Of a stretch of 64,000 nt of DNA, positions 325 through 64,000 are shown piece by piece. The notes under the pieces were generated by a model. That model searched no databases. It saw only the letters and a program-made list of their open reading frames with translations, and was not told the DNA's origin. The position numbers and the translations under genes were made by a program. Location: positions 37,251 to 101,250 of IMG/VR virus record IMGVR_UViG_3300028801_000007. The stretch is one strand, 5' to 3'. Numbering within the stretch: the stretch's first letter is position 1; each line of letters opens with the position of its first letter. The DNA is from a virus.

Positions 325-770
325 TTCAAATTCATGGCTGGCATCGGCTTCGACTGACGCAAAATTCCGCTCAGTACCAAAAGTTTTCCCCGATGCCATG
401 CATGAATTTTGAGCCAGCCGTTCGTAAATCTTTTCAACTTCCGCAGAATGTGCCATTCTTAGCGTTTCTGCGATGCGATTACAGCTAGTCACGTCTGAAT
501 CGGCTTCATTCAAGCGTCCTGGACAACGATTATTGCCCATCCACTTCTTCAGCATCCGCTGAAAATAGCGCTTTGATGCTCGATGGACGCAGAGCGACTT
601 TCTCAAAGTCATCATTCCGGCACCACGGATTTTTTCTCGGTACATGAGCTATCTAGCGGATTCCGGCATATTCTTTTGCCTCGTTGCCGGCTCTCAAGGA
701 AACGCGCCGACATGCGACTGCGCACAAAGTCGTCGGCGCAAGTACTGTGCGCTTCCTTGAAAGCCCTCGG

Positions 771-842
771 CATGGGGTGCTGGATTCGAACCAGCACTGC
801 ACGGTTTTGGAGACCGGCCGGCTACCGTTGCCACAACCCCAA
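771..842 (-). tRNA. tRNA-Trp(CCA), possibly degenerate
   Basis: Reverse complement folds as a cloverleaf: TTGGGGT/ACCCCAT acceptor, TGGC/GCCG D stem, CCGGT-CTCCAAA-ACCGT anticodon arm, GCTGG-TTCGAAT-CCAGC T arm; followed by CCG, not CCA. Confidence 0.8.
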
Positions 843-20006: not shown

Positions 20007-20669
20007 ATGAGCATCGCAACCTTAATCATCGGCGAGAGCGGGACCGGCAAGACGACCAGCTTGCGCAATCTGGACCCGAGCCAGACCCTTTTGATTCAGG
20101 CGGTGAAAAAGCCGCTGCCATTCCGATCTGGCGCATGGAAGCCAATCGTCAAGGGTAAGGGTGGTTCTGTCTACGTGACGGATAACAGCGCAAACATCGT
20201 GGCCGCCATGCAGCGCACCGAAAAGGAAATCATTGTGCTTGATGATTTTCAATACTGCCTCGCCAACGAATTTATGCGGCGTGTGACGGACGTTGAGACG
20301 GGTAATGGTGCGTTCGCCAAGTACAACGAAATCGCCCGCCATGCCTGGGACATCCTCATGGCGGCGAGCTCGTTGCCGGATCACAAGCGCGTGTACATCC
20401 TCAGTCATACCAGCACCGACGACTTCGGAAAGACCAAGATCAAGACGATTGGCAAGCTTCTGGACGAGAAGATCGTCATGGAGGGACTTGTCACTATCGT
20501 TCTACGCACTGGCGTGACGAACGGCGAGTACACGTTCAGCACCAGGAACAACGGCCAGGACACAGTAAAGAGTCCGCTGGGCCTTTTCGAATCCGACCAT
20601 ATCGAGAATGACCTCGCGATGGTGGATGCAGCCATCACGGCTTATTACGACCTCAAGCAAGCAGCCTAA
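20007..20669 (+). CDS. Sak4-like AAA recombination ATPase
   Basis: LIIGESGTGKTTS, IVLDDFQY, KIKTIGKLLDEK, KSPLGLF. Confidence 0.85.
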   Translation: MSIATLIIGESGTGKTTSLRNLDPSQTLLIQAVKKPLPFRSGAWKPIVKGKGGSVYVTDNSANIVAAMQRTEKEIIVLDDFQYCLANEFMRRVTDVETGNGAFAKYNEIARHAWDILMAASSLPDHKRVYILSHTSTDDFGKTKIKTIGKLLDEKIVMEGLVTIVLRTGVTNGEYTFSTRNNGQDTVKSPLGLFESDHIENDLAMVDAAITAYYDLKQAA

Positions 20670-20681
20670 AGGAAATCAGAC

Positions 20682-21353
20682 ATGTATCAACTCGACAAGC
20701 AAGCCGCGATGAATGCCGACTCCACCGGCAAGTGGCTCAACGAAACTGGCAAGTACATCGGCAAGATTCTCTATGCAGAGGATATCGAGGCACAGACGGG
20801 GACGCGCGGCATTGTCCTTAACCTGCAAGCCAACGATGGCCGGGAGACTCGCCAGTACGTCTATACGATGAAGAAGGACGGCGAAAAGCTGTCTGGCTAT
20901 GACCTGCTGATGGCTCTCATGACGTGCCTGAAGCTGCGCGGCATCAAGCCTGTTCCGGGGCCGGTGAAGCGCTGGAACAAGGATACGAAGCAGGAATACA
21001 CCGAGCAGGGCCAGGTGTTTCCTGAGCTGGCCAACAAGCCAATCGGCTTCCTGCTTCAGAAGACCGAAGAGGAAAGCCGCAAAAATAAAGGTCAGACGGC
21101 ATGGACCGCGAAACTCGTCGGCGTGTTTGAGGCTGGCACGGAACTGGTGGCGGCCGAAATCCTGAACGGCAAGACGAAGCCTGAGGCGCTTGCATTGCGG
21201 GTTGCGCAGCTCGCTGACCGCCCGATGAAGAAACGTCCCGCTGCGGCATCCCATCAAGATTACGACTACGGCGATCCGCCAGCAGACGCAGGCTTCAATG
21301 ATGACGTGCCATTCGCCCCGGCTTACGCGCGCGCAGCCTGGTCAATCATTTAA
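20682..21353 (+). CDS. putative single-stranded DNA-binding protein
   Basis: Follows Sak4; acidic tail containing FNDDVPF. Confidence 0.65.
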   Translation: MYQLDKQAAMNADSTGKWLNETGKYIGKILYAEDIEAQTGTRGIVLNLQANDGRETRQYVYTMKKDGEKLSGYDLLMALMTCLKLRGIKPVPGPVKRWNKDTKQEYTEQGQVFPELANKPIGFLLQKTEEESRKNKGQTAWTAKLVGVFEAGTELVAAEILNGKTKPEALALRVAQLADRPMKKRPAAASHQDYDYGDPPADAGFNDDVPFAPAYARAAWSII

Positions 21354-21363
21354 GGAGGCGATA

Positions 21364-22149
21364 ATGAATGTGACTCTGGACATCGAGACCATACCCTCGA
21401 CCAACCCCGCCGTGCTCGAAGCCATTCGCGCCGATCTGCGCGAGAACTTCAAGGCCCCGTCCACGCTGACGAAGGAAAAGGCTTGCGCTGACCTCGGCAT
21501 GACTGACGCGGACAAGATCAAGTACACGTCGAAAGACAGCGCGATTGCAATGTGGGTGGAACGCTTCCGCGATGAAAAGCTCGAGGAGTCCGCGCAAGAA
21601 CAGTGGCGCAAGACCTCATTCGATGGCGGATCCGGTCAAATCGCCGTGATCGGCATTGCACTGGACGACGCCGAGCCGGTCACATTCTATTCCGAAGACT
21701 GGGCGCATGACGAAGCCAAGGTGCTGCGATCCGCATTCGACGCGATCAAGGATGTGTACACGCCAAGTTCCGACCGTCGCCCGGTGTTTATCGGCCATTA
21801 TGTGACCGAATTTGATCTGCGCTTCATCTTCCAGCGTGCGGTCGTGCTGGGCATCAAACCGCCGTCAATCATCCCGTTTCACGCACGCCCCTGGGACGAT
21901 TACGTTTTCGACACCATGACGCGATGGGCCGGGTTCAAGGGATCAGTGGGGCTTGACCGGCTCTGCGACGCGCTGGGCATTCCCGGCAAGACTGACGGTG
22001 TGGGCGGCTCCAAGGTATGGGATATGGTCGCTGCCGGCCGTATCGCCGAAGTGGCCGAGTACTGCGCAAACGACGTGCGCATGGCTCGCGCCGCATACAA
22101 GCGACTGACGTTTCAAGACACCGCCCACCTCGAAGCCGAACACGCCTAA
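21364..22149 (+). CDS. DnaQ/PolB-like 3'-5' exonuclease
   Basis: LDIETIP (Exo I), GHYVTEFDLRFI (Exo II), YCANDV (Exo III). Confidence 0.88.
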   Translation: MNVTLDIETIPSTNPAVLEAIRADLRENFKAPSTLTKEKACADLGMTDADKIKYTSKDSAIAMWVERFRDEKLEESAQEQWRKTSFDGGSGQIAVIGIALDDAEPVTFYSEDWAHDEAKVLRSAFDAIKDVYTPSSDRRPVFIGHYVTEFDLRFIFQRAVVLGIKPPSIIPFHARPWDDYVFDTMTRWAGFKGSVGLDRLCDALGIPGKTDGVGGSKVWDMVAAGRIAEVAEYCANDVRMARAAYKRLTFQDTAHLEAEHA

Positions 22150-22395: not shown

Positions 22396-22773
22396 GTGAG
22401 TTGCTCTTGTGATTACGACGAATATGCGGCCGTTTATGTTGCAAAACGCATTATTGCGCGCAAGCAGCATAAGTGCAGCGAGTGCAGCACGCCGATCCTG
22501 GCGGGCGAGCAATACGAGCGCGTTGGATCGTTCTTTGATGGCGCGTGGGGCACCTATCGAACTTGCTCGCGATGCTTGGCGTTGCGCGACTTTGTAGAGG
22601 CGCATGTGCCATGCATGTGCTGGCAACACCACAGCATGAGAAGCGACGTTATCGAAACGGCTCGCGAATATGCGCACGAAGGACCGGGGCTGTTGTTCGG
22701 CGCATATCGGCGAGAGGTCCTGATCAAGAGAGCAAGATTGCTCGCTCAGTCGGCGGCTAAGGGAGGTGCGTGA
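22396..22773 (+). CDS. zinc-finger hypothetical protein
   Basis: ARKQHKCSEC...I..GEQYE...TCSRC. Confidence 0.65.
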   Translation: MSCSCDYDEYAAVYVAKRIIARKQHKCSECSTPILAGEQYERVGSFFDGAWGTYRTCSRCLALRDFVEAHVPCMCWQHHSMRSDVIETAREYAHEGPGLLFGAYRREVLIKRARLLAQSAAKGGA

Positions 22774-23354
22774 TGAAACTGACTCGATCTATCGAGCGTT
22801 GGGCAAAATGCTCACCCGATGTCATGAGCGAAATGTCCACCGCTGCGATCTGCTTTGCCTTTAAGGATGCGAAGCATGATATTGCCGCCCTCGCCGCCTC
22901 GCATGCAGCACTACTAGCAGCGCTTGAGCGAGTTCGCCAGAATATTCCGGACACGCAAATTTGCTGCGAGTGCCCAAGGGCAGATGGTTTCGATATGGAG
23001 CCCCAGTGCTGCAACGAGCCCGACAGACTGCATGACGTGATCGACGCTGCCATTAAGGCTGCGAAGGGGTTGGGATGGATGAGCGAAGAAGTTCTGACCG
23101 TATCGGACCTGCGAAGGCTATGGCACATGCTCGGTGCTGGTCCTGATAGACCGATGCGGAACTGGGGTTATCGAAACCACTACGCGTCAGGGATTGTTGG
23201 CGAGGCATACGAATCGATGTGCCGGATGGAGCGCCTCGGTCTGGTTGTGGCGGCCCAGCGTGACGGCAGCATGACGTTCTTTCACGCGACTGAGGCCGGG
23301 TGCCGAGAAGCCGGTCTAGACGCGAAGCAGATTAAACGCGCACTGGAGGATTGA
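22770..23354 (+). CDS. hypothetical protein, apparent fusion of two genes
   Basis: GATGGATG at 23074-23081 where the counterpart in B has a GATGA stop/start overlap. Confidence 0.6.
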   Translation: MMKLTRSIERWAKCSPDVMSEMSTAAICFAFKDAKHDIAALAASHAALLAALERVRQNIPDTQICCECPRADGFDMEPQCCNEPDRLHDVIDAAIKAAKGLGWMSEEVLTVSDLRRLWHMLGAGPDRPMRNWGYRNHYASGIVGEAYESMCRMERLGLVVAAQRDGSMTFFHATEAGCREAGLDAKQIKRALED

Positions 23355-23550
23355 GATGCTGAACTTTGATGCTTGGTTGCGCCAGCCGATAACGACAGAG
23401 ACCACAGAAGAAGACGTTCTGTACTTGCATTGCATCGGCTGTGGCAAAGACGAAATGGTCACCAAGAAAGCTTTAGAAAACGGCGATGCCTGGGCCACCG
23501 AAGAACTGTGCGGCGGCTCGCATCTGTGCTGTCCATAAAAAGGAACAATC

Positions 23551-24951
23551 ATGAGCAACGAACTTAGCGATAGCCGCGAGGCGTTTGAAAAAATCGAAGC
23601 GGCATCGGAATTGTCGCGTGACGAAACCGGCGATTACTCGAATCCTTGCGTTCAATCTGCATGGGAAGGGTGGCAAGCCGCTCTCGCCCACAAGAGCGAG
23701 GGGGCTGTGCCCGTCGCTGCGCCGGTAGATGCGAGCAGCGAGCAGGCGACCAGCACCGGGTGGGTGCCCGAAATCTTGGAGGGGCCGGGTGAGAATGTTT
23801 GCTACACGCAAGACAACACTCCGCGCGCCGAGCGCAAGGAAATGGTGGTGATTTCAGCGGCAGACCACGACAGACTCCGCTATTTCGCGTCGATCGACGA
23901 ATTTTCTTACGCCGAGGAAACCAAGTTACTCAGCTCGATATCGCCGACAGTCCTTATCGGTCAACTGCGGAAATTGCGGAAAGATTTAAGGGCAGCAAAA
24001 AAGGCGATCGACCCTGCGCCCCATAGCGGTGAGGCTGCGCCCGTGGTGGCAGATGCGCAAGCCGAGGCGGATTTGAACGCCGTGTACGACGTTTTTGCCA
24101 TCGGGGCGAAGGCGCGCACGATTTCGACGCTACTTGTGAACTGCCAGAACGCCTCGCGCCGTTCAGGTTGCCTATCGGCGATCGAGCGTGAGTTTTTCAC
24201 GACGGAAGCACCTGCCGAAGACCCCGAAGAAGAAGGCGATACTATCGAGGTGTGCCCGCTGAGCTGGGGCTCCAACCGGACTGAGTACGTTGAACAGATG
24301 CGCGGCGCGCTCGCAGAACGCGAAAGGATTGCGGTCGAAGCATTCAAAGCCACCGCCTCATCGCAGCACGTGGCTGTGAGTGATCCGGTCGGCCACTTCA
24401 TCGATGATGCAGCGGACGGCGAGAAACCCCACTATTCGCAGGTCGCCGAGGTGTTCAAGAGCGCGGCCGATGTGATCCCGCTGTACCGTGCTCCCCTTCC
24501 TCGCGCCAGCGATGCGCCTATCGGTGAGGCTGCTGTTTCTGACGACAGTGCGCGCATCCAAGATTATGCCGAGCAGAACATGCTCACGCTTGAGGAAGCA
24601 GCCGACGAATTGCGAGCAGCGCCACGGCATGACCGCGCACCTGCTATCGGTGAGGCAGGGGGAGTGGTGGCGGAGGAAGTACTAGCTGCCATAAAACTGG
24701 CATGTGAATCACGGGATATTGAATTTAATGCCGACACGCCGCGCGCAACCGTTGGGAGTCTATTTCTCTGGGAAAGAGACAACGCCGCCCAGCCGCAAGC
24801 AGCGCCGAGCGGGCTGAGCATGGACCGCATGCGTGAGCTAGCACGCGAAACGCTAGACGAAGGGTTCTCAGGCGGATTCTACGAGGAAACGTTGACCCGG
24901 CTTATCGGTCGAGCTATCGCTGCTGCTCAGGCTGCCGGGAGCGGAGCGTGA
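23551..24951 (+). CDS. Mosaic Ea22/Ead-like protein (element A)
   Basis: SREAFEK...W.GWQAA N-terminus; shares seven linker blocks with 62044-63888. Confidence 0.75.
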   Translation: MSNELSDSREAFEKIEAASELSRDETGDYSNPCVQSAWEGWQAALAHKSEGAVPVAAPVDASSEQATSTGWVPEILEGPGENVCYTQDNTPRAERKEMVVISAADHDRLRYFASIDEFSYAEETKLLSSISPTVLIGQLRKLRKDLRAAKKAIDPAPHSGEAAPVVADAQAEADLNAVYDVFAIGAKARTISTLLVNCQNASRRSGCLSAIEREFFTTEAPAEDPEEEGDTIEVCPLSWGSNRTEYVEQMRGALAERERIAVEAFKATASSQHVAVSDPVGHFIDDAADGEKPHYSQVAEVFKSAADVIPLYRAPLPRASDAPIGEAAVSDDSARIQDYAEQNMLTLEEAADELRAAPRHDRAPAIGEAGGVVAEEVLAAIKLACESRDIEFNADTPRATVGSLFLWERDNAAQPQAAPSGLSMDRMRELARETLDEGFSGGFYEETLTRLIGRAIAAAQAAGSGA

Positions 24952-25063
24952 GCGACGTAGCCGAAAAGACAATTCTCGACCCGTGCTGCGGTGGACGAAT
25001 GATGTGGCTTGACCGCCAGCACCCGAGCGTGATCTTTGGCGACCAGCGTCACGAGGTGCTGAC
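24937..25063 (+). repeat. Direct repeat, left copy (identical to 63874-64000)
   Basis: 127/127 identical by eye; the true length is unknown because the right copy reaches the window end. Confidence 0.95.
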
Positions 25064-25472
25064 CGTTACTGACCGCTCGCATGGTAACGACAGCGGCACG
25101 CGCACGCTCCGCATTGAGCCTGACGTGATGCTGGATTTCCGTGCTTTGCCGTATTCGGACGGCGCTTTCAAACTGGTTTCGTTCGATCCGCCGCATTTGG
25201 TGCGTGCTGGAGCCAAGAGTTGGTTGGCAGCTAAGTATGGCCAACTCGGTCCCGACTGGCGCGACGACCTACGCAGAGGCTTCGCAGAGTGCTTTCGCGT
25301 GCTCTCCGTGGATGGCGTTTTGATCTTCAAGTGGAATGAAACGCAGATCAAGGTGAGTGAGGTTTTGGCGTTGGCTGAGGTCAAGCCGCTCTTTGGCCAT
25401 CTAAGCGGCCGCAAAGGGCTCACACACTGGCTCGTCTTTATGAAGACCGCTGCGCATGGAGATAAATCATGA
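24948..25472 (+). CDS. SAM-dependent (amino-)methyltransferase
   Basis: ILDPCCGGRMMW (motif I) and FDPPHL (motif IV-like). Confidence 0.85.
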   Translation: MSDVAEKTILDPCCGGRMMWLDRQHPSVIFGDQRHEVLTVTDRSHGNDSGTRTLRIEPDVMLDFRALPYSDGAFKLVSFDPPHLVRAGAKSWLAAKYGQLGPDWRDDLRRGFAECFRVLSVDGVLIFKWNETQIKVSEVLALAEVKPLFGHLSGRKGLTHWLVFMKTAAHGDKS

Positions 25473-26864: not shown

Positions 26865-26892
26865 ACCACAGACTTCCTTGACCGGAGATCAA

Positions 26893-27384
26893 ATGCTTAC
26901 TCAAGAACGCCTAAAAGAAGTCCTTCACTATGATCCCGAAACAGGGATATTCACTTGGGTCAAGCCTTCCTCTAATCGTCTGAAGCCTGGCGATCTAGCA
27001 GGATCAATAGAGCCGGATGGCTACAGAAAGATCATGGTCGATAACAAAAACTACAAGGCCAACAGGCTCGCCTGGTTATATATGACCGGCGTCTTCCCTG
27101 AACATGAAATAGACCATCGCAATACCTGCAGATCGGACGATAGCTTCTTTAATCTGAGGCATGCTACACACTCGCAGAACGCCCAAAACGCGTCGATTAG
27201 AACTGATAACACTTCTGGAATAAAAGGAGTGTTTTGGCATAAATACAGTGCGAGATGGGTAGCTCGACTTCAATCCAATGGGAAGCAAAAATGCGTGGGA
27301 TATTTCATATCGAAGGAAGAGGCTGGCAACGCTCTTCATGAGGCCAGGGAAAGACTTCACGGAGAGTTCGCTAATCACGGCTGA
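26893..27384 (+). CDS. HNH-AP2 homing endonuclease
   Basis: LTQERLKEVLHYDPETGIFTW, IDHRN..RSDD...NLR, NTSGIKGV AP2-like tail. Confidence 0.88.
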   Translation: MLTQERLKEVLHYDPETGIFTWVKPSSNRLKPGDLAGSIEPDGYRKIMVDNKNYKANRLAWLYMTGVFPEHEIDHRNTCRSDDSFFNLRHATHSQNAQNASIRTDNTSGIKGVFWHKYSARWVARLQSNGKQKCVGYFISKEEAGNALHEARERLHGEFANHG

Positions 27385-37093: not shown

Positions 37094-37885
37094 TTAGAAT
37101 CCAGCGTCTTCAGCAGTTAGGCCGGCAGGAGTGGCACTCCCCTGAATGGCACTCCCTCCCTGGTTAGCGCTCAATATGCTATTCAAAGCAAAAGCGTTAC
37201 CCGCGCCACTTATTCCGGCTCCAGCGGCATTTGCCGCACCCACGGTACCGGCCGCCTGTGCCGCGCCGCCTGCTGCAGTCGCCTGAGCTGCACCGGTTCC
37301 CAGTTGCGTCCCTGCCGTCCCAACATTGCTCGCCGCATTCTGTCCCAAGCCAGCGATGCCGGAAAGGCGTGAGAAAATATTATTCTGCGCAGTCTGCTGA
37401 GTATTAAAGTTCGTCGTGTATGCGCCCAACGCTTGATTGTAATAATTGTTGTAATACTGCTCGGCGTTACCAGTTGCATAGTTGGTCAAAGCTTGCAGGG
37501 CAGGTCCAGACAGCGCCCCAACGTTCGGCGCTATTGCGTTCTGCGTCTGCTGCAATCCCTGGCTTTGAGAAAATTGATACCCGGGCGAACTTGTGATGCT
37601 CGATGGATTGAATGAAAACGGCGCTGGCCCAGCTTGCGACAAGTAACCATTGCCAGAGCCACCGGGCGTCAGTCCAAGCAATTGCGACAGTGAATTAGTT
37701 GCGCTGACCCCAGCCGACATGAACGGCTGTTCCTGCCCGTTGATGGTATTGAACATCGCCATCTGCTGAGCAGAGGCAGCGCTATCTGCGCCAGCCTGCG
37801 TATTAGCAGCAGACTCAGCGCCACTTGCAGATATAGCAGCGCTGCCAACCGTAGCGGCCCCAACTGCGATTGCAGCACCTACCAT
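37094..37885 (-). CDS. Ejection protein (P22 gp7-like)
   Basis: Gly/Ala-rich N-terminus, SPGYQF..SQG, LSG..LQAL..Y motifs. Confidence 0.75.
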   Translation of the reverse strand: MVGAAIAVGAATVGSAAISASGAESAANTQAGADSAASAQQMAMFNTINGQEQPFMSAGVSATNSLSQLLGLTPGGSGNGYLSQAGPAPFSFNPSSITSSPGYQFSQSQGLQQTQNAIAPNVGALSGPALQALTNYATGNAEQYYNNYYNQALGAYTTNFNTQQTAQNNIFSRLSGIAGLGQNAASNVGTAGTQLGTGAAQATAAGGAAQAAGTVGAANAAGAGISGAGNAFALNSILSANQGGSAIQGSATPAGLTAEDAGF

Positions 37886-61841: not shown

Positions 61842-62043
61842 AAATCATTCAGATACAAGCTATGGGAGGGGAAGACGGAGACCTGTACGGGCTCGATGAG
61901 CAGGGAGGGCTCTACGTATATCGGTCTGCTATGGGTCCTCACACACGCCGCAATGGTCAGCTAGAGGATGGGTGGACGTCGGGATGGGCCCCGATGGACT
62001 GCGGCATCTCGGAACCAGTCCCACACCCGGAAAAGGAACAATC

Positions 62044-63888
62044 ATGAGCAAAGAACTTAGCGATAGCCGAGAGGCGTTTGAGAAATATTGGGCTGACAAC
62101 TATACCGGCCCACTGATGGTCGATGACTACCCATCGACCGAAGCGCAAATCTGCTGGCTCGGCTGGCAAGCAGCTATCGCCCACAAGAGCGAGGGAGTTA
62201 AGGTGCGGTTGACACAAGACGTATTGGATCATTGCTGGGAAATGTACCAGCAAGGTCAAATATCGGCCGATCACACCGCTAAGCAAGTGTTCGAGGGAAC
62301 ACTTCTAAGCTTGGCAGTATGGCTTGCGAAACACAATCTCGTCGCTGTCTCCTGCAAAGCATGTGATGGCTACGGTTCGATTTGGACCGGGATAGACGAA
62401 GCGCCTGCTGACTTGTGTAAATCGTGCTCAGGAACGGGAACAGCACCTGCTGCGCCCGTCGCTGTGCCGGTAGATGCGAGCATTCCACCGATTATGTACA
62501 ACGGCGATACGAAGCGCGACCCGGCATTGAAGGCGCTGCTTAATGCGCAGATTGCTGATCGGCTTTCCATGACGACGGGCCAAGTCAAGCAATTGGATGC
62601 GGTTCTAGACCGCATATTTGACGGACCTGTGATAGTCCCTGCGGCAGCGCCGAGCTACTCGAAACAGATCAAATGGCCAGAGGGGTATTGCCTCGACCCG
62701 AACGGGGCTATGACGTGCCCAGCAGGAATGCATGAAGCATGGAGCTTCGGATATGACTTGGGCTATGCAGACGCGCTGATCGCCAAGGCACCGCAAGTAG
62801 CATCGAGCACGGACGATTACGCTGCAACCCGTTTGCGTGGCATCTGTAAGACGCTGGGTTTAGAGAGCGCTATTCCAGCGGACGATGCTGAACTGCTTGA
62901 CTCTCTCTTTTCGGTGCTGGGTCAGATCCGCTTCCAGATAGAACGGATGCAAGCTAGCGCCCCCGTGCCCCATAGCGGTGAGGCTGCGCCGGTAGGAACG
63001 GCAGGCCCCGAAGGAGGCGCACTCGTGCAGTTTTCGAAGTGGTATGCCGCACAAGACTTTTCCGGGATGCCGGCAAAGGAAATTTCTTCGCTGTCATTTG
63101 ATGCGGGGCACCTGTTTTGGCACGAAAAAAACTTAAGCGAAGATTGGATTGAAACGGCAAAAAGCCTTGCTCGAAACTGGAGATTATCCCGGCGCGGTGC
63201 TGAGTCACAACAGGCATTCGCAAGATTTGAGAATCACCTTAAAACCCACGGCGCCCCTATCGGTGAGGCTGGGGGAGTGGTGGCGCATGTTCCGATTCAT
63301 CCGACGCAAGGGCCGTTGTGGGCCAACACGGTGCCATTGCTCGATGTCGGTGATCGTCCGAAGCATTACCCGACACTCCCTCTCTATTTCGCCGCCCAGC
63401 CGCAAGCAGCGCCGAGCACTGATACTCGGCACGTTGGCGATTCCAGGTTCGAAGGTTGGTATTCGGACTACCGTGCGCACGGCGCGAGTCCCAAGCAGAT
63501 AGCGCGGGATGCTTACGCGGCTGGCATGGGCGATCAGACAGCAGCGCCGAGCGGGCTGAGTGATGCGGTACGCGATGTGCTGGCCGAGCGAGTTCGTCAG
63601 GTGAATGTTGAAGGTTGGACGGTCGAGCACGATGACGAGCATACAAATGGGGAGATGGCGAAAGCTGCCGCAGCATATGCACTGAATGCAGGAAACATAG
63701 CGATCGGATGGCCCAATGATCCTATGCGTGCATTTTGCGAGCCTCCTCCATGGTGGCCTTGGAGCCGCGAGTGGTGGAAACCTGACACGCTGCGTTGGAT
63801 GCTTATTAAAGCCGGGGCATTGATCCTTGCCGAAATTGAGCGCATCGACCGCATCGCTGCTGCTAGCGCTACTGGGAGCGGAGCGTGA
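62044..63888 (+). CDS. Mosaic Ea22/Ead-like protein (element B)
   Basis: Shared linkers with 23551-24951; CxxCxGxG zinc finger; C-terminal DVLAER.RQ...EGWT.EHDD...WPW...KAGALILAEIER domain. Confidence 0.8.
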   Translation: MSKELSDSREAFEKYWADNYTGPLMVDDYPSTEAQICWLGWQAAIAHKSEGVKVRLTQDVLDHCWEMYQQGQISADHTAKQVFEGTLLSLAVWLAKHNLVAVSCKACDGYGSIWTGIDEAPADLCKSCSGTGTAPAAPVAVPVDASIPPIMYNGDTKRDPALKALLNAQIADRLSMTTGQVKQLDAVLDRIFDGPVIVPAAAPSYSKQIKWPEGYCLDPNGAMTCPAGMHEAWSFGYDLGYADALIAKAPQVASSTDDYAATRLRGICKTLGLESAIPADDAELLDSLFSVLGQIRFQIERMQASAPVPHSGEAAPVGTAGPEGGALVQFSKWYAAQDFSGMPAKEISSLSFDAGHLFWHEKNLSEDWIETAKSLARNWRLSRRGAESQQAFARFENHLKTHGAPIGEAGGVVAHVPIHPTQGPLWANTVPLLDVGDRPKHYPTLPLYFAAQPQAAPSTDTRHVGDSRFEGWYSDYRAHGASPKQIARDAYAAGMGDQTAAPSGLSDAVRDVLAERVRQVNVEGWTVEHDDEHTNGEMAKAAAAYALNAGNIAIGWPNDPMRAFCEPPPWWPWSREWWKPDTLRWMLIKAGALILAEIERIDRIAAASATGSGA

Positions 63889-64000
63889 GCGACGTAGCCG
63901 AAAAGACAATTCTCGACCCGTGCTGCGGTGGACGAATGATGTGGCTTGACCGCCAGCACCCGAGCGTGATCTTTGGCGACCAGCGTCACGAGGTGCTGAC
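63874..64000 (+). repeat. Direct repeat, right copy (start of a second copy of the methyltransferase gene; GTG at 63885)
   Basis: Identical to 24937-25063. Confidence 0.95.

Follow-up and report, generated by a model that had tools for sequence, protein, structure and literature searches.

The 64,000-nucleotide stretch analysed here (positions 37,251 to 101,250 of the IMG/VR virus record IMGVR_UViG_3300028801_000007, hereafter the window) comes from a viral contig of 101 kb, of which it forms the final 64 kb. It carries on its plus strand two long open reading frames (ORFs), A (23551..24951, 466 amino acids) and B (62044..63888, 614 amino acids), which share a series of short, nearly identical DNA blocks separated by unrelated sequence. 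We propose that A and B represent two alleles of a single accessory gene, hyper-mosaic in make-up and located in the early operon of temperate phages known from peat metagenomes, and that this gene is shuffled by short-homology recombination at the shared blocks, which we call linkers. We give this reading a probability of about 0.7.

When the window was compared with itself by blastn, the only matches obtained were a series of short blocks located in and just upstream of A and B, with E-values from 1e-5 to 9e-65. Eight to nine blocks are common to A and B. They are on the same strand and collinear, measure 21–55 bp and show 86–100% identity, and a longer stretch at the end enters the next gene; two further matching blocks sit in genes upstream of A and B. 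A first-pass annotation, made from the letters of this DNA alone, had described A and B as unrelated save for short collinear near-identical blocks; this description is correct, and its coordinates were right within a few bases. It had listed seven linkers, all of which were found on the plus strand. L1 (A 23538..23592, B 62031..62085; 55 bp, 94.5% identity) contains the ribosome-binding site, the start codon and the first codons. It is followed by L2 (A 23654..23702, B 62148..62195; 85.7%), L3 (A 23704..23737, B 62449..62482; 94.1%), L4 (A 24009..24044, B 62958..62993; 88.9%), L5 (A 24644..24672, B 63257..63285; 96.6%) and L6 (A 24783..24810, B 63390..63417; 100%). L7 (A 24916..24960, B 63853..63897) corresponds to the end of the ORF, whose stop codon overlaps the start of a DNA methyltransferase gene; it belongs to the longer final stretch (24916–25063 matching 63853–64000, plus strand, 96.6% identity) that runs into this gene. 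Missing from the original list was an additional plus-strand block of 21 bp, L6b (A 24798..24818, B 63540..63560; 100% identity), seen only in a sub-region comparison. In A, L6 and L6b are contiguous (24783..24818, plus strand), and this stretch of 36 nt recurs unchanged in each of the five other genes of the family.

Linkers L1 to L7 thus join six inter-linker modules in A. In B, the ATG start was placed after the conserved ribosome-site block, as in A; a GTG at 61972, which would give a longer ORF B, was judged an unlikely start. At the protein level, true homology between A and B detected by BLASTP is confined to the N-terminal 51 residues (57% identity) and to the linkers. No module separates L2 from L3 in A, whereas 83 residues lie between them in B. 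The proposed contrast between an empty slot in A and an insert in B therefore stands, whereas the zinc finger that this insert had been said to contain is only a weak match to the DnaJ-type family (Pfam, E 0.058). The same blocks recur in independent metagenomic loci, which excludes a chance origin.

Relatives for which DNA is available were found by pattern scans that left every third codon position free. They comprise four more distinct genes, all metagenomic, designated L001, L004 (= L078), L005 (= L003, L081) and L007. About ten more members, again all metagenomic, were obtained as protein only in a profile search of 1.8 billion representative proteins. A metagenome scan returned only duplicates of L004 and L005 in addition to chance matches, and a degenerate L3 pattern proved too loose (52 matches, mostly chance). 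For any pair of the six independent genes with DNA, the common DNA consists of collinear 20–55-bp blocks of 82–100% identity with unrelated DNA between them; a module carried by two genes is 93–97% identical. Once cut at the linkers, 18 proteins or fragments yielded 86 modules; clustering by sequence placed these in 64 clusters, 53 of which have a single member.

Modules are reassorted at the linkers in these relatives. The first-pass annotation had made its interpretation depend on such reassortment in homologs, and it was borne out on this point. P0128 combines the two L4–L5 modules of L001 with the C-terminal module of L005, and P0003 brings together modules known from A, L004 and B; no simple tree explains these combinations. 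Modules were also supposed to occupy fixed slots, and this part of the proposal has to be abandoned, since they move between linkers. The module located between L6 and L6b in B precedes L5 in P0130, whereas in P0131 it comes after L6; gp32 of the Burkholderia phage PhiBt-E264.1 contains it as well. A portion of the region preceding L4 in B lies between L6 and L6b in P0003, and a 34-residue module of A, which stands there behind a hybrid linker, follows a plain L4 in P0003.

Several traces of recombination are preserved at the joints. The hybrid linker of A (24517..24533, plus strand) has L5 as its left half and L4 as its right half, with the junction located within an 11–12-nt core that is shared by both linkers. 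In B, a 13-nt direct repeat (63405–63417 and 63540–63552, plus strand), formed by the end of L6 and the start of L6b, brackets a 41-residue module (63418..63539, plus strand) that is absent from A; A has a single copy of the 13-nt sequence and no module there. In L007, a gene of 257 amino acids with a PAPS-reductase domain (PF01507, E 7e-15; L007:9691-10461, minus strand) sits between L3 and L4 in another frame, so that the family gene is divided into two ORFs.

Mosaic joints at domain borders are classically explained by illegitimate recombination followed by selection. Applied to this family, modules would have been replaced at random breakpoints, selection would have kept the in-frame joins, and the linkers would be passive leftovers, the oldest unreplaced DNA of a young population. 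Such a history would account for linkers that diverge as much as the background of shared DNA and that are unrecognisable in more distant phages sharing a module. However, the same 20–55-bp blocks bound exchanges repeatedly in about 18 genes, and random breakage should rarely hit such small targets. Joining inside a shared core in the hybrid linker, the direct repeat of linker sequence flanking the inserted module of B, and the same linker DNA flanking the out-of-frame gene of L007 are likewise not expected from it. We consider this explanation unlikely.

The joints are not restricted to the interior of the family gene. Similar short conserved blocks occur at several gene boundaries upstream; in L004, the L1 block also heads another small ORF located upstream, and in L005 the first half of the second module of B is the C-terminal end of a separate upstream gene. 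The joints therefore belong to the whole early region, translated or not. A dedicated intragenic plug-in system, as first envisaged, does not fit these data, because the same joints mark upstream gene boundaries and a slot can hold a whole separate gene. Fusion of neighbouring genes can be followed directly in the window. The upstream ORF 22770..23354 (plus strand, 194 amino acids) unites in one frame two genes that L007 keeps as distinct ORFs overlapping stop-to-start, and the sole difference between the two versions is a 4-nt tandem duplication near 23073–23076. We also considered integron-like cassettes. The linkers fold no better than shuffled sequences (z from −0.9 to +1.2), so that nothing resembling attC-like folded sites was seen in them, and no integrase was found among the neighbours that were annotated; these results do not support an integron-like mechanism, and this candidate was rejected. 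A Chi-like reading of the G-rich core of L5 was also considered and set aside.

We then asked at which level the linkers are conserved. Among codon pairs encoding the same residue in the linkers, the two codons agree in 461 of 505 (91%), where codon usage predicts about 159 (32%). The linkers are spelled alike codon by codon in all genes, rare codons included, and because the degenerate scans did return chance matches using other codons, other spellings of the linkers would have shown up. Linker conservation thus lies in the DNA, and reaches beyond the protein level as had been predicted. Codon differences in linkers are nonsynonymous in 42 cases and synonymous in 44; for shared modules and the methyltransferase gene, the corresponding counts are 6 and 36. 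The linker peptide is thus weakly constrained, and protein function is unlikely to be what keeps the linkers alike.

These figures bear on the possibility that the linkers matter as peptides, for instance as polyprotein cleavage sites or docking motifs, their DNA identity being incidental. Modules all in one frame and Ala/Pro-rich linkers resembling flexible inter-domain segments would agree with it. The substitution pattern just described, unlike that of the modules, does not, and the seven linkers have no common motif such as one protease would need. Moreover, the linkers of L007 fall in two separate ORFs, L1 and L7 are translation start and stop regions, and the neighbouring genes that were annotated did not include a protease gene. 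A role as peptides appears very unlikely.

The structure of the source contig raises another question. An exact 127-bp repeat is present at 24937–25063 and 63874–64000, the two copies being 38,937 bp apart and the second one finishing at the end of the contig. The repeat looks like the wrap-around of a P22-like phage of 38.9 kb with a circular genome, which may have been linked to another phage during assembly or through true insertion at the methyltransferase gene. A and B are accordingly treated here as alleles of two phages in one community, not necessarily in one cell. Could assemblers have produced the mosaics themselves, by joining pieces of different phages at short repeats? The terminal repeat would be compatible with this, and so would the Logan contigs (k=31) from four other peat runs, which break at the linkers. 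Nevertheless, the protein of ORF A is on record letter for letter from four contigs, and for L004 as well as for L005, separate records gave identical copies of the gene. Blocks of 21–55 bp are shorter than reads and than the largest k of common assemblers. In addition, a long open frame is kept in every member, although random mis-joins would break two in three. False mosaicism of this kind is highly improbable.

Contigs from the peat runs give further information on the natural population. Gene A is present in at least 24 peat-metagenome runs, and the run listing names no RNA dataset for it. In runs X3 and X9, pieces identical to A tile positions 23528–24812 without any difference; stretches of A that no contig covered in runs X10 and X24 were left out of the evidence. 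The same peat samples contain contigs from further members of the family, which extend into L004-like and B-like modules. In X3, three contigs that fall entirely within A showed depths of 46, 10 and 5.5, and X9 gave similar values. As a hint only, contig depth being a rough measure, such uneven depths within A fit modules circulating in different combinations.

How could such a gene be generated? The gene is placed between phage recombination genes and a DNA methyltransferase gene, and each allele is a single frame in which four to seven mostly unrelated modules of about 30–150 residues are strung on short Ala/Pro-rich linkers, the linker-coding DNA being the only homology common to different alleles. 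According to the proposal made above, whenever one cell contains related phages or prophages, crossovers would take place within the linker blocks, through the single-strand-annealing machinery of the phages themselves or through host RecA, with in-frame swap, insertion or deletion of modules as the outcome. A module could move to another slot because linkers share sub-cores (L3/L4, L4/L5, L6/L6b). Small indels at upstream gene boundaries would fuse or split neighbours, so that the long ORFs are probably fused strings of once tiny early genes. The layout of the alleles, their reassortment, the DNA-level identity and the footprints are observations; from them we infer both the mechanism, homology-driven recombination, and the identity of the acting recombinase. 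Lengths of 21–55 bp are within the range used by phage annealing recombinases in recombineering. Phage recombinases have been reported to make mosaics by homology-driven exchange that tolerates divergence (PMC3945230, PMC2327257). The first-pass annotation had invoked such enzymes, and recombination genes are indeed located just upstream of both ORFs.

Several observations weigh against this proposal. No crossover has been directly observed. Only six distinct genes have DNA, and codon pairs are not independent since the sequences are related. The contig is possibly an assembly join of two phages at the 127-bp repeat, and A and B may thus not share one cell. Sak4, the annealing protein of the phage carrying A, is not Rad52-like, the class tested in PMC3945230, and the annealing protein of the second phage is unassigned. 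Codon identity is 0.91 in linkers and 0.84–0.92 in shared modules and the methyltransferase gene, so that the linkers are not better conserved than other shared DNA. Finally, the linkers were not found in the cultured-phage collection, including Burkholderia phages that share a module; the Burkholderia phage module shared with B is 76% identical in DNA and has different linkers around it. They were found in 0 of 185,579 species-representative genomes, where 21 degenerate matches to L6 are low-complexity chance matches using other codons. Linker conservation may therefore reflect merely recent common descent within one recombining population. The linkers are population-specific joints and not deeply conserved elements. 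A tblastn search with A against cultured phages gave nothing.

These points also determine how the role of the linkers should be viewed. The idea that they serve as recombination handles is supported in part by the footprints and by reassortment; at the same time, they are no better conserved than other shared DNA, and nothing shows selection as handles. Given a divergence equal to that of other shared DNA and their absence from distant relatives, we favour the view that linkers are what survives and is homogenised in a recombining population, rather than selected handles. It is conceivable, if rather doubtful, that they are kept as handles by second-order selection, the early operon acting as an integrase-free "domain array" that re-deals host-directed modules among co-infecting phages. 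If so, each phage would get a combinatorial, fast-changing, multi-headed early protein.

Comparison with known systems places this family as an extreme case of phage mosaicism. The closest parallel at inter-domain junctions is given by recer sequences, for which in-frame recombination joints at domain borders were proposed in Gram-positive surface proteins (de Chateau & Bjorck 1996, PNAS 93:8490, via PMC3467074). In both cases, short conserved DNA at the junctions of an intronless gene is proposed to promote in-frame shuffling. The family studied here likewise has short conserved DNA at module junctions and unrelated modules in varied combinations (six genes, 64 clusters); as to actual recombination at the joint, it offers footprints only (hybrid linker, direct repeat, inserted gene). 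Unlike recer, reported as repeats of one 15-bp sequence in bacterial surface proteins, A and B possess at least seven different linkers of 21–55 bp in a phage early gene, their module pool is far larger, and their modules may be free-standing genes.

Among phage genes, the gp38 adhesin of T-even phages contains conserved glycine-rich motifs that separate hypervariable segments and ease their interchange (PMC3157838). The likeness lies in short conserved motifs between variable segments within one phage gene. The gp38 motifs are reported to form the structural core of one domain whose loops set host range, whereas the variable parts of A and B are whole unrelated domains and their linkers are weakly constrained. 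The His boxes of gp37 represent a related case. In T4-type phages, promoter/terminator cassettes (PeSLs) mediate modular shuffling (PMC2839356, PMC4122927): variable early genes of hyperplastic regions are bordered by short conserved sequences which are regarded as recombination sites, as in our family. PeSLs are, however, intergenic regulatory elements, and most joints of A and B are translated in-frame linkers.

Two other comparisons concern early genes and mobile elements. In lambda and Stx phages, the exo-xis region contains ea22, a gene that has been described as mosaic (PMC10834534). Like A and B, ea22 is an early gene placed downstream of recombination genes, and combines a common N-terminal part with C-terminal domains that are portable and unrelated; it is made of two or three blocks with no DNA-level linker set described, in contrast to at least six blocks in A and B. 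The Ead_Ea22 coiled-coil signature is absent from 17 members of the family (Pfam, E 0.01), and only the genomic position is analogous. Polyvalent proteins, which are multi-domain polypeptides encoded by phages and conjugative elements and proposed to function at an early stage of invasion (PMC5512222), also unite numerous unrelated domains in a single protein of a mobile element. They are typically large and enzyme-rich, virion- or transfer-linked and delivered with the DNA, whereas the A/B gene is in an early operon, and none of their signature domains (ArdC-N, MuF, enzymatic effector domains) was detected by Pfam in the 17 members.

The mosaicism of lambdoid phages (PMC3945230, PMC2327257) resembles the present situation in that temperate phages with their own recombinases leave traces of homology at the borders of exchanged fragments. 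Here too, there is an own recombination system and residual homology at segment borders; no Rad52-like annealing protein was identified. In those two studies, exchanges are reported to be gene-sized or larger and to involve Rad52-like proteins, whereas A and B exchange at the scale of protein domains, next to Sak4-type and RecE-associated recombinases. What sets this family apart is the combination of at least seven different joints in one early gene, a very large module pool, changes of slot, and interconversion between free genes and fused domains.

A and B have comparable surroundings. The recombination module preceding A (20007..22149, plus strand) encodes a Sak4-like annealing ATPase, the single-stranded DNA-binding protein SSB and an exonuclease; that preceding B, in the second phage (59070..60732, plus strand), encodes a RecE-like PDDEXK exonuclease and a partner, phrog_11517, of no assigned role. 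The same methyltransferase gene follows both ORFs. Directly downstream of A it occupies 24948..25472 (plus strand; phrog_954, E 1e-68), and the copy behind B is cut by the end of the contig at 64000. This setting matches that of accessory genes behind recombination genes within the exo-xis region of lambdoid phages. About 1.4 kb downstream of the methyltransferase gene lies an HNH endonuclease gene (26878–27384; phrog_99, E 1e-68), and a tRNA-Trp gene (769–842, minus strand) is the sole RNA gene found in the window with Rfam. The P22-like portal protein is only 31–39% identical to portals of known phages. Sequence matches of the modules suggest a host among Burkholderiales.

The modules themselves resemble few known proteins. 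Pfam returned nothing for A; in the 17 members (E 0.01), it returned only DUF3850 in one and a marginal match in another, and the PHROGs matches of the members are all families without known function. The best characterised module is the C-terminal domain of B (63532..63885, plus strand), predicted to be a helical bundle with a model pLDDT (predicted local distance difference test) of 90. This domain caps hundreds of prophage proteins of 338–1075 residues in Pseudomonas, Burkholderia, Paraburkholderia and Cupriavidus, where its partner domains include Lar, DUF551, DUF4406 and DUF3850, and it contains an invariant acidic/histidine cluster. It matched no family in the Pfam copy searched, and neither a profile search of PDB sequences nor Foldseek found anything. 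Membership in the MazG-like all-alpha nucleotide pyrophosphohydrolases, which have a four-helix fold with conserved acidic metal-binding residues, was considered for this domain. Comparison of its model by VIA gave as best match the archaeal protein 2p06_B (Z 6.5, root-mean-square deviation 4.2, 84 aligned residues) and a Z of 4.4 for a MazG-related chain, values that are in the chance range for helical bundles. An AlphaFold model of whole A from a 7-row alignment (mean pLDDT 42) was not used, and an ESM Atlas search with residues 166–320 of A scored 0.81, which is chance level.

Early genes of this type are also found in cultured phages. PhiBt-E264.1 gp32 (L085:2296-4050) is a multi-module early protein of 585 amino acids whose gene adjoins an integrase gene. 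The gp32-type early gene is itself mosaic among cultured Burkholderia phages: phiE125 (gp38) shares only its last 31%, at 99.8% identity, and several others share only the first 33–43 nt of the gene, at 100%.

For the A/B protein, we put forward tentatively a role in early host takeover or in anti-restriction, a guess based on gene position, early expression by analogy, the adjacent methyltransferase and the occurrence of Lar among the partner domains. The effector role, possibly in anti-defence, suggested in the first-pass annotation is likewise conjectural; Pfam recognises almost none of the modules.

The family described here extends phage mosaicism to the scale of single domains, in frame, with many defined joints in one gene and in a natural population with coexisting alleles. 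It makes an old question testable, whether mosaic joints arise by homology or by random breakage followed by selection. For annotators, it is a caution that such long ORFs are strings of independent units. It also brings to light many small early-gene modules that are as yet uncharacterised (64 clusters in 18 proteins). Some of them extend into Burkholderia and Pseudomonas phages in culture, and these modules are candidates for host-takeover or counter-defence functions.

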